Below, piece after piece: positions 20,779 through 21,735 of a DNA stretch of 64,000 bases (positions are counted from its first letter, which is position 1; each line of letters starts with the position of its first letter). The stretch spans positions 9,286 to 73,285 of the forward strand of contig WRLA01000005.1 in NCBI GenBank assembly GCA_009777825.1, in the 5' to 3' direction. Under the pieces are notes generated by a model. The model made no database searches. It had not been told where the DNA came from and worked only from the letters and a program-made list of their open reading frames with translations. This DNA is from Bacteroidales bacterium (GTDB lineage: Bacteria > Bacteroidota > Bacteroidia > Bacteroidales > WRLA01). The position numbers and the translations under genes are program-made.

Positions 20779-21735
20779 TTATATCTCATTTCTATTTACC
20801 GTATTTACTTTTAAATCTGCCAAATCCCTTACATACAAATTTTTATATTTTGGTTGTGGCATGTCTAAGTGAAAGCAATCGCTTTCTTTCAATATAGAAA
20901 TTTGCATATTTTTAGGTAATTTTCTGTTTGCGTTATTCACTGCCTCTTCAAATTTTTTCTTCTCTGCATTTCCCCATTTATTAGATTCAAACCCAATGTC
21001 AACCGCATTTAAATCGTCGTACTGGGGACTCATATGAGTAGAGACAAATCCATTTTTTATTGCCTTATCTTTCATTGCAGATTTAATTTCCTCTTTACTT
21101 TTTCCTTCTTCCACTGCTTGGTCATGTGCTTTAATAATTTCTTGTCCTTTCAATTTATATTTTTTTCTCGCATCACTATTTGGACGATTAATGTAATTGT
21201 ACATAGCGTTGATTTGTTGGTCAAGGTTTCTTTTTGTGCTTGTAATTTTGACCTCCGTAGTTCCCATGTCTTTTCCTATTTCAGAAAGTATTTGTTTTGT
21301 ATATGGAGACACAACTTTTGAATTTATTCCTGGTGCAAACATGATGTTCGCTCCTTGTGAATTAGCAATCGCATCCCTCAAGGGCTGCATCGCAGATCCA
21401 CCCATAGCACCAACACCTACAGATCCAAGTCCTATACCTTTTTTCAATGCCTCAATTGAAGAAGAACTTTCGGTTACCAAATATTCCTCATCCAAAGTAT
21501 TCGCCTTTTCTTCCAGATGTGGAATAAATTCCGTCATCTTATCTTTAAGAGTATTTAGTGGGCTTTTGATTGCTTCAAAGTCTGCTTTAAATGTTTCAGC
21601 GACTTCATCTCGCCAGTCATAGCCATATAATTTTTGATTCATCGAAGTTTCAACCTGCGTGAAATCTTCAATGTTCTGCTGTAAAATATTTGCAAAATCT
21701 CTTAAATCTTTTGGGGTTACTATTGCTTGTGCCAT
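20779..21735 (-). CDS. candidate secreted effector: N-terminal W-x-D module, Gly-rich linker, C-terminal LAS/M15-like zinc peptidase domain
   Basis: C-terminal strings VKITSTKRNLDQQ, STHMSPQYDDLNAVDIG and DCFHLDM fit the (S)xH..D / HxD arrangement of M15/VanY-type peptidoglycan peptidases (by eye). Confidence 0.65.
   Translation of the reverse strand: MAQAIVTPKDLRDFANILQQNIEDFTQVETSMNQKLYGYDWRDEVAETFKADFEAIKSPLNTLKDKMTEFIPHLEEKANTLDEEYLVTESSSSIEALKKGIGLGSVGVGAMGGSAMQPLRDAIANSQGANIMFAPGINSKVVSPYTKQILSEIGKDMGTTEVKITSTKRNLDQQINAMYNYINRPNSDARKKYKLKGQEIIKAHDQAVEEGKSKEEIKSAMKDKAIKNGFVSTHMSPQYDDLNAVDIGFESNKWGNAEKKKFEEAVNNANRKLPKNMQISILKESDCFHLDMPQPKYKNLYVRDLADLKVNTVNRNEI

Follow-up and report, generated by a model that had tools for sequence, protein, structure and literature searches.

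Type VIIb secretion systems (T7SSb) of Firmicutes export WXG100/LXG toxins, such as Tel of Streptococcus intermedius, in which an N-terminal helical domain of the WXG100 superfamily is followed by a variable C-terminal toxin, with small WXG-like partner genes and an EssC-type ATPase encoded nearby (PMC5555719). In this study, we analyzed a gene of the same general layout in a 64-kb stretch of DNA (64,000 nucleotides, hereafter called the window) from contig WRLA01000005.1 of a Bacteroidales bacterium. The gene is an open reading frame (ORF) on the minus strand, and its product, referred to here as the effector, consists of an N-terminal module with a W-x-D motif, a short linker, and a C-terminal cargo domain (Table 1). 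We consider it probable, though far from certain, that this protein is one of several polymorphic secreted effectors of a type-VII-like locus containing an FtsK/SpoIIIE ATPase and WXG100-like proteins, and that it carries a wall-directed cargo remotely related to the LAS metallopeptidases. The host would be a Prevotellaceae-like bacterium.

The combination of a WXG100-type secretion domain with exchangeable toxin cargo, including wall-directed cargo, is already known from T7SSb. The novelty lies in the Prevotellaceae-like diderm setting, in the W-x-D form that the module takes, in the lack of immunity genes, and in the cargo family itself. In contrast to the toxins of Firmicutes, the effector belongs to a diderm, Bacteroidota-like host, contains W-x-D instead of W-x-G or LXG, and has no adjacent immunity gene, and at its locus the FHA domains are located on separate proteins. 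TelC, a cargo of T7SSb, reportedly acts on lipid II. In the open-access literature searched, we found no description of a type-VII-like system from Prevotella or other Bacteroidota, and the catalogue of polymorphic toxins published in 2012 does not list a VanY/M15 toxin domain.

Peptidoglycan hydrolases, which the effector is predicted to be, have also been found encoded in other secretion-system loci. TagX from Acinetobacter is an LAS L,D-endopeptidase of family PF13539, which cleaves the L-Ala-D-Glu bond and is needed for export by a T6SS, or type VI secretion system (PMC5061870), and EssH from Staphylococcus aureus is reported to be recruited by T7SSb (PMC13059805). However, TagX is a membrane-anchored, non-secreted protein and a clear member of PF13539, and EssH is a CHAP enzyme. 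Unlike both of them, the effector possesses a substrate-type WXG100-like module and occupies a polymorphic effector slot.

The reality of the ORF is well established. It is complete from start to stop codon, the plus-strand frame across the same positions is riddled with stops, and the same protein (100% identity) in the same gene order occurs on an independent metagenome contig (ENA ERZ27257302, k141_1065594). The motifs quoted in the preliminary description of this DNA were all located, and in the order claimed, i.e., YDW41RD43 within the N-terminal 90 residues, the Gly-rich stretch GIGLGSVGVGAMGGSAMQ in residues 100-117, and, further on, VKITSTKRNLDQQ (162-174), STHMSPQYDDLNAVDIG (232-248), and DCFHLDM (286-292). 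No relative of the effector was found among 185,579 GTDB representative genomes.

Taken alone, residues 1-90 match the Pfam WXG100 model with an E-value of 0.013 (16.2 bits, below the cut-off of 27.3 bits), TIGR03930 with 0.0024, also below cut-off, and the PDB entry 3fx7 with 0.017, whereas LXG (PF04740) gave no match on the effector at E<=0.1. A profile built from seven aligned paralogs and orthologs, in which W41, D43, and F49 are invariant, is more informative. Against the PDB, it recovered HP0062 from Helicobacter pylori (3fx7) over the full length at E 4.3e-5, with the W-R-D motifs aligned, and EsxB (4j42) at E 3.4e-3; EsxB, EsxA, SAG1039, and gbs1074 together span E 3e-3 to 0.1. The W-x-G sequence is not present at the hairpin turn, where the module has W41-R-D43. 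These HP0062/EsxB-type matches place the module within the WXG100 superfamily, as a member that has W-x-D in place of W-x-G. HP0062 (3fx7, 2gts), its best solved relative, resembles it from end to end and likewise bears W-R-D at the hairpin turn, but it is a stand-alone protein of approximately 90 residues (PDB chains of 86 and 94 residues) with no cargo and low identity. An AlphaFold2 (AF2) model of the full effector, made from its sequence alone, is of low confidence, with a predicted local distance difference test (pLDDT) score of 47, and is uninformative for the cargo; in the module it shows two long helices, residues 8-35 and 42-80. Within the window, there are four further copies of the module, one at the N-terminus of a 539-residue paralog and three as stand-alone proteins of 87, 90, and 72 residues, and more copies are present on related contigs.

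Evidence for a modular effector comes from the paralog, whose gene lies 7 nt downstream. The first 150 nt of the two genes are identical at 145 of 150 positions, and over the first 294 nt the identity is 86% at both the protein and the nucleotide level. Beyond nt 300, a point inside the Gly/Ala-rich linker, they have nothing in common. The linker is the recombination boundary. A similar linker follows the module in the paralog, in the ortholog P0002 from locus L087, and in the loci L092, L093, and L094. A metagenome scan with the module retrieved these last three loci, which are syntenic. In L092, module and linker are attached to a Ser/Thr/Gly-rich cargo and to an HExxH-containing cargo; in L093, to a cargo with sub-threshold matches to NlpC/P60 (E 1.6e-4) and CHAP (E 5.6e-3); and in L094, to two other cargo types. 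The same module carries at least five types of cargo in the window and these three loci. The cargo of P0002 is 49% identical to that of the effector. Directly behind P0002, a 39-residue ORF (L087, 774-893) matches the last 37 or so residues of the HExxH cargo of L092 (5088-6098), the common sequence being EEHSARVYGESAAA.F.EFLVERKQ.RLRIK, and it appears to be the remnant of a cassette displaced during cargo replacement. Because the paralog diverges within the linker, other cargoes occur on the same module, and L087 retains this remnant, the modular nature of the effector, as initially proposed, is well supported. A constant N-terminal trafficking region, variable C-terminal toxin domains, and signs of cassette exchange, by which polymorphic toxins are recognized, are all seen here.

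The linker had been described as Gly-rich and hydrophobic. The Gly-rich stretch is indeed present, but it is too weakly hydrophobic for a membrane helix, and with a best Kyte-Doolittle mean over 19 residues of about 1.0, a role as a transmembrane anchor was ruled out.

The cargo belongs to a family that is widespread but has escaped curation. An exhaustive HMMER search with residues 118-318 (E<=1e-3) yielded at least 217 representatives of clusters at 50% identity, whereas a word-index search with the C-terminal 201 residues returned only the effector itself. Among the best 150 homologs, the domain lies within 30 residues of the C-terminus in 124, and it is found after RHS/YD cores, PAAR, eCIS_core (of extracellular contractile injection systems, eCIS), and WXG100 modules. 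A Pfam scan of 130 full-length homologs identified fusions to delivery domains (RHS_repeat in three, DUF6443 in one, PAAR in one, eCIS_core in two, and WXG100 in three), to wall-binding domains (PG_binding_1 in 12, PG_binding_3 in six, LysM in two, and SH3_3 in one), and to wall-lysis domains (SLT in four, and Phage_lysozyme, Phage_lysozyme2, and GH19 in one each). The homolog P0027 is a genuine WXG100 fusion of the Firmicute type that carries the toxin domain. Neither the effector nor a profile of 39 family members matched any enzyme among PDB sequences, NCBIfam returned only noise for the family, the sole match in PHROGs was phrog_16107 (E 2.4e-4), to which no function is attached, and tblastn against phage genomes gave a single unannotated match (E 6e-3). 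We regard these terminal toxin domains as one large family that lacks curation, with neither a Pfam or NCBIfam model nor a solved structure.

Conservation within the family is high at specific polar positions. In 100 full-length domain homologs, Q174, Y193, M221, D246, and H289 are conserved in 100%, H234 and M178 in 99%, R169 and G197 in 97%, S166 in 94%, S232 in 93%, and Y179 in 77% of the sequences, and E or D occupies position 291 in 89%; H234 and D246 are also invariant in an alignment of 130 full-length sequences. The effector retains all of these residues, and its motifs cannot be put down to chance. The claim that the proposed His/Asp/His residues and the ITSxxR..Q strand are conserved among homologs was thus borne out. 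Modeling by AF2 with an alignment of 39 sequences gave a pLDDT of 95.2 and a predicted template modeling score (pTM) of 0.87, with elements in the order β-α-β-α-(helical insert)-β-α-β-β. The conserved helical insert comprises about 45 residues and carries the invariant Y193, G197, and M221.

The context strongly suggests peptidoglycan as the target of the domain, either in the periplasm or at the wall. At four loci representing three contexts, namely the RHS cassettes of L002 and L089, L003, and a Sec-secreted toxin in L091, the downstream gene encodes a member of one small lipoprotein/secreted family of about 110-126 residues with the pattern G-x-W ... F-E-I ... D ... Y-V-(D/E), and a lipoprotein gene (L088) also comes next after the WXG100 fusion P0027. 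This family is likely a new family of immunity proteins. Because these immunity-like proteins are extracytoplasmic and the domain is fused to PG_binding, LysM, SH3, SLT, and lysozyme domains, peptidoglycan is the expected substrate, in agreement with the peptidoglycan-directed function suggested earlier. A phage LT_GEWL protein, which matches the predicted structure, points the same way.

Less clear is how the domain relates to the LAS/M15 enzymes, which include VanY (PF02557) and, within PF13539, Ply500 from Listeria phage, Lys from phage T5, and CwlK from Bacillus subtilis. The domain and these enzymes share the order of the elements strand-xxR-xxxxQ-xx(L/M)Y, S-x-H...D, and H-x-E, as well as the peptidoglycan context. 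Using hhalign, we compared the family with the Ply500 family (48 distinct sequences) and the T5 Lys/CwlK family (120 sequences). The P-values were 6.2e-4 for the former and, with the helical insert trimmed, 6.6e-4 for the latter, and ranged from 6e-4 to 2e-2 overall, with probabilities of 2-28%. The scores of 19-28 exceeded the maximum of 18.4 obtained with column-shuffled decoys (0 of 60 in each of four tests, 240 decoys in total) and the scores of 12-13 obtained with reversed decoys. The M15-type Arg after the core strand and the Q-xx-LY helix are present, and every run placed motif I on GYRSxxEQ (Ply500) and GIRTxAQ (T5 Lys). Motif II aligned with SxH..AxD of both enzymes in the global and insert-trimmed runs, and R169, H234, and D246 were in register in the runs against Ply500 and trimmed T5 Lys/CwlK. 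Motif III aligned with pHfEL of Ply500 in the global run and elsewhere in the T5 Lys runs, and H289 fell on the last zinc-binding His in one case only, when the insert-trimmed family was aligned globally with the merged T5 Lys and Ply500 sequences. The residue at +2 from H289 resembles that of HFEL/HVEL in Ply500/T5 Lys, and position -4 is D, N, or E in 96%. In the model, R169 follows strand 2, H234 is in the loop preceding strand 3, D246 is in strand 3, and H289 is in the last strand, and this order of strands and helices agrees with that of the M15 core.

The only curated family with credible matches to members of the domain family is the uncharacterized DUF5715 (PF18979), for which we found no paper in the open-access literature searched. 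Five of the 39 members match it over profile positions 35-163, with a best E-value of 1e-7, whereas most members, including the effector itself, have no match, and P0062 scores 23.1 bits, under the cut-off of 26.8 bits. DUF5715 is also matched weakly, in the segment from motif I to motif II, by three bona fide M15_4 proteins. We take DUF5715 to belong to the Peptidase_MD clan, an assumption to which these weak cross-matches lend indirect support.

A number of results weigh against the LAS part of our interpretation. The membership in M15/VanY/DUF882 asserted in the preliminary description did not hold, as no M15, VanY, or DUF882 model reached threshold for the effector or any family member, and for the effector, the M15 models of Pfam and NCBIfam gave no match even when E-values up to 0.1-1 were admitted. 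Three of 39 members matched VanY at E>=0.025, in motif I only, and one matched NCBIfam vanXY at E 0.021. The VanY matches were discarded as evidence, because the unrelated Mito_fiss_Elm1 equals them on the same segment and concatenation of family members did not raise VanY above it. With the pLDDT-95 model, Foldseek retrieved no PDB entry at E<=1e-3, the top 50 contained no LAS structure, and in BFVD none of the many M15 endolysins matched, the only matches being an unnamed family member (template modeling score 0.70) and a phage LT_GEWL fusion protein; by the criterion set in the preliminary description, both outcomes count against a LAS fold. The similarity between the T5 Lys and Ply500 families (P 2.6e-17, probability 98.9%) is about 14 orders of magnitude stronger than that of either to the present family. 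H234, D246, and H289 are conserved and co-linear like the M15 triad, yet the spacing is H-x11-D instead of H-x6-D. D286-x-x-H289 is present in the effector, but only 67% of the family have D or E at either -3 or -4, and the acidic general base found at -3 in M15 appears not to be conserved. Moreover, among homologs such as P0056, P0092, and P0034, some join the domain to a canonical VanY/M15_4 domain and others to SLT/lysozyme domains; the occurrence of VanY/M15_4 as a separate second domain argues that the present domain is something distinct, and these multi-lytic architectures suggest that it cuts another bond than the classical M15 enzymes do. By the profile, fold, and subfamily-similarity criteria tested, it is a distinct family and not a member of M15. 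What remains is the weak hhalign signal above the null and the bridge through DUF5715, and the domain may plausibly be a very distant branch of the LAS fold that bears an insertion.

Alternatively, the domain may be a peptidoglycan enzyme whose fold and mechanism are unrelated to LAS and whose motif likeness is convergent. The conserved H/D/H/E/R would then belong to another metallo-hydrolase, for example an amidase, or to an enzyme of non-peptidase wall or lipid II chemistry. A confident model with no significant structural neighbor in the PDB would fit such an enzyme, as would the faint profile similarity to M15, the insert foreign to M15, and the canonical VanY/M15_4 found on one chain with the domain, a sign that the two activities are probably not redundant. 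However, we hold this alternative to be rather unlikely. Its opponents are the three co-linear motifs in register with Arg/His/Asp/His of M15 in the global alignment, at scores above all shuffled or reversed decoys, the sharing of DUF5715 with true M15_4 proteins, and the agreement of the secondary structure. That the cargo is not directed at peptidoglycan at all, but is an inactive binding module or a protease with host or other proteins as its substrates, is very improbable. The effector itself has no wall-binding domain, but the repeated fusion of its domain to wall-binding and other muralytic domains, the extracytoplasmic lipoprotein genes after homologs in four different contexts, and the invariant polar residues, which are typical of catalysis, all speak for an enzyme of the wall.

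A further question is whether the effector is a toxin or serves the secretion machinery. As an accessory enzyme, its W-x-D module would bring the hydrolase by way of the ATPase-driven translocon into the producer's own periplasm for local opening of the sacculus, making room for the machine or its substrates. TagX and EssH provide precedents for such a role. In two independent loci, the window and L087, hydrolase effectors with about 49% identity occupy the same slot, directly before the genes for the 90-, 87-, and 163-residue proteins, and neither locus has an adjacent immunity gene, unlike toxin cassettes with the same domain. Nevertheless, a wall-remodeling function is unlikely, since the slot is polymorphic: L092 has HExxH and Ser/Thr-rich cargoes and no hydrolase of the toxin-domain family, L093 has an NlpC/P60-like cargo, and L087 keeps the displaced remnant of another cargo. 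The near-identical nucleotide sequence of the module on a paralog with unrelated cargo is typical of exchangeable toxins, and in RHS, PAAR, and eCIS proteins elsewhere, this same domain forms the terminal toxin. Because of the polymorphic slot and these toxin contexts, a toxin is more likely than an accessory enzyme. The antibacterial part of the toxin interpretation is weakened by the missing immunity genes. No immunity-like gene lies beside the effector in the window, none follows P0002 in L087, and six-frame searches found no homolog of the lipoprotein family anywhere in the window. The absence of a small gene directly after the effector had been noted correctly, the next gene being that of the paralog, but the two signal-peptide proteins put forward as immunity candidates (13927-15024 and 7385-8071) find no support: neither resembles the cognate immunity family, and both belong to the kinase/phosphatase block, at a distance from the effector, the former overlapping a kinase gene start by 4 nt.

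If the effector is a secreted, wall-directed toxin, as we favor, the hairpin of residues 1-90 would probably form pairs with the small W-x-D proteins of the downstream genes and probably be recognized by the adjacent EssC-like ATPase. The cargo (residues 126-302) would most likely hydrolyze a stem-peptide or cross-link bond in a metal-dependent manner, with H234, D246, and H289 as the candidate site, an assignment we make tentatively, and R169, Q174, S166, and E/D291 would assist in the predicted catalysis. Since no immunity gene is present at the window or the orthologous locus, use against other bacteria from outside would be most likely, speculative as this is, and its outer membrane or, perhaps, an immunity gene elsewhere may protect the producer itself. 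A more far-reaching possibility, doubtful but worth considering, is that this is an undescribed type-VII-like system of diderm Bacteroidota with immunity-free, wall-degrading W-x-D effectors against Gram-positive neighbors or free wall material, together with a new hydrolase family whose fold is predicted with confidence but has no solved relative. In that case, the effectors would be released outside, the outer membrane of the producer would be a built-in protection, and the cargo family would serve RHS, PAAR/T6SS, eCIS, phage, and type VII delivery.

The presence of one tag on different cargoes in sister genes suggests a toxin-delivery system new to this bacterial group. WXG100-type effector logic in a Gram-negative gut lineage is of interest in itself, and the missing immunity genes raise the question of how a diderm uses and survives such effectors. 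From a practical point of view, knowledge of the bond specificity of an unnamed wall-targeting toxin domain that occurs across several delivery systems would add an enzyme class for muropeptide analysis and enzybiotic design. In addition, the LAS-like, NlpC/P60-like, and HExxH cargoes provide a handle on the rules of the secretion signal.

Table 1. Positions of the effector, its parts, and associated genes. Coordinates refer to the window unless a locus is named.
Feature	Position	Strand	Remarks
Effector ORF	20779..21735	minus	complete, ATG to stop; 318 aa + stop codon; from ORF list and translation
WXG100-superfamily helical-hairpin module, residues 1-90	21466..21735	minus	W41-x-D43 replaces W-x-G; presumed secretion/recognition module
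Linker, residues 91-125	21361..21465	minus	Ser-rich, then Gly/Ala-rich; contains SIEALKKGI
Alpha/beta enzyme ("toxin") domain, residues 126-302	20830..21360	minus	putative peptidoglycan hydrolase; candidate metal site H234/D246/H289
Motif I, EVKITSTKRNLDQQINAMYN	21196..21255	minus	S166, R169, Q174, M178; aligns with M15 xxGYRSxxEQ strand-helix (hhalign)
Motif II, VSTHMSPQYDDLNAVDIG	20992..21045	minus	S232, H234, N243, D246; H-x11-D, vs H-x6-D in M15
Motif III, SDCFHLDMPQ	20854..20883	minus	D286, H289, D291; family consensus [DNE]-x-x-x-H-[LI]-E-I-P-Q
Paralogous effector, 539 aa	19153..20772	minus	same W-x-D module and linker; unrelated Asn/Lys/Thr/Gly-rich cargo
Stand-alone W-x-D protein, 90 aa	18837-19109	minus	
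Stand-alone W-x-D protein, 87 aa	18543-18806	minus	
Helical protein, 163 aa	18047-18538	minus	locus-conserved
W-Q-D protein, 72 aa	17808-18026	minus	locus-conserved
Coiled-coil protein, 218 aa	21748-22404	minus	immediately upstream of effector
FtsK/SpoIIIE ATPase, EssC/EccC type, 923 aa	22404-25175	minus	PF01580, E 9e-26; two genes upstream of effector
Downstream lipoprotein/secreted family	L002 8897-9277; L089 3909-4289; L003 1086-1424; L091 3884-4246		

The genes surrounding the effector (Table 1) are in keeping with a secretion locus. The ATPase matches TIGR03928 (EssC) with an E-value of 1.6e-32, below the equivalog cut-off, and, in the searches of GTDB representative genomes, it alone gave a relative. 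This relative, from a Prevotellaceae metagenome-assembled genome (L005), is 71% identical and flanked by the same FHA and coiled-coil genes; the arrangement of ATPase, coiled-coil, and effector genes is kept in L092. The ATPase has no obvious transmembrane segment. The stand-alone W-x-D proteins of 87 and 90 residues share 68% and 37% identity, respectively, with the N-terminus of the effector, come after the effector in L087 and L092 too, and are likely partners or chaperones of its module. Orthologs of the 163- and 72-residue proteins occur in the same order in these two loci. EssA, EssB, EsaA, and YukD were not detected among the 10 neighboring gene products scanned with Pfam (12665-25834).

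Taken as a whole, the minus-strand block at 7385-25834 has the appearance of a type-VII-like secretion locus from a genome of the Bacteroidota type. It encodes an FHA protein, the EssC-like ATPase, the coiled-coil protein, the two W-x-D effectors, and the three small W-x-D proteins, followed by a protein with signal peptide, transmembrane segment, and FHA domain, a PP2C phosphatase, three Ser/Thr kinases, one of them with an FHA domain, and signal-peptide proteins, of which that at 9715-11055 resembles an outer-membrane barrel. The core gene order of the block recurs in L092 and in part in L005.

Several minor features of the effectors deserve mention. The linker motif (P)SIEALKKGI at residues 92-102 (21430-21462, minus strand) has the paralog versions PSIDALKA and PSLSALKTG, and in the effector of L093 (47-1075) it occurs as four tandem copies, GDSPSIEALKKGI[RK]GEGA. 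The motif may serve in processing or docking, or as a spacer. The cargo of the 539-residue paralog has no Pfam hit and ends in the tail LTDHDLQRLSLQGIYPSF...NSRDKYKDILDIL, which is conserved at the end of the far shorter, 255-residue effector of L094 (915-1682). Because this tail is kept across effectors of such different lengths, it may be a separate functional element. Beyond its enzyme domain, the effector also has a tail at residues 303-318 (20782-20829, minus strand), RDLADLKVNTVNRNEI, which is kept in P0002 (RDLANLQTNKI); the RHS-type homologs are without it and end at the IPQ motif.

The plus strand has long ORFs of 170 aa (20147-20659) and 141 aa (21197-21622) antisense to the two effector genes. 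Their C-terminal halves are alike, as they reflect the module and linker common to both genes, and the ORFs are in all likelihood not real genes. Another duplicated-module pattern in the locus is displayed by two 528-residue Ser/Thr kinases (8103-9689 and 11070-12656, minus strand), which are separated by a signal-peptide protein and combine near-identical kinase domains with unrelated C-terminal halves.

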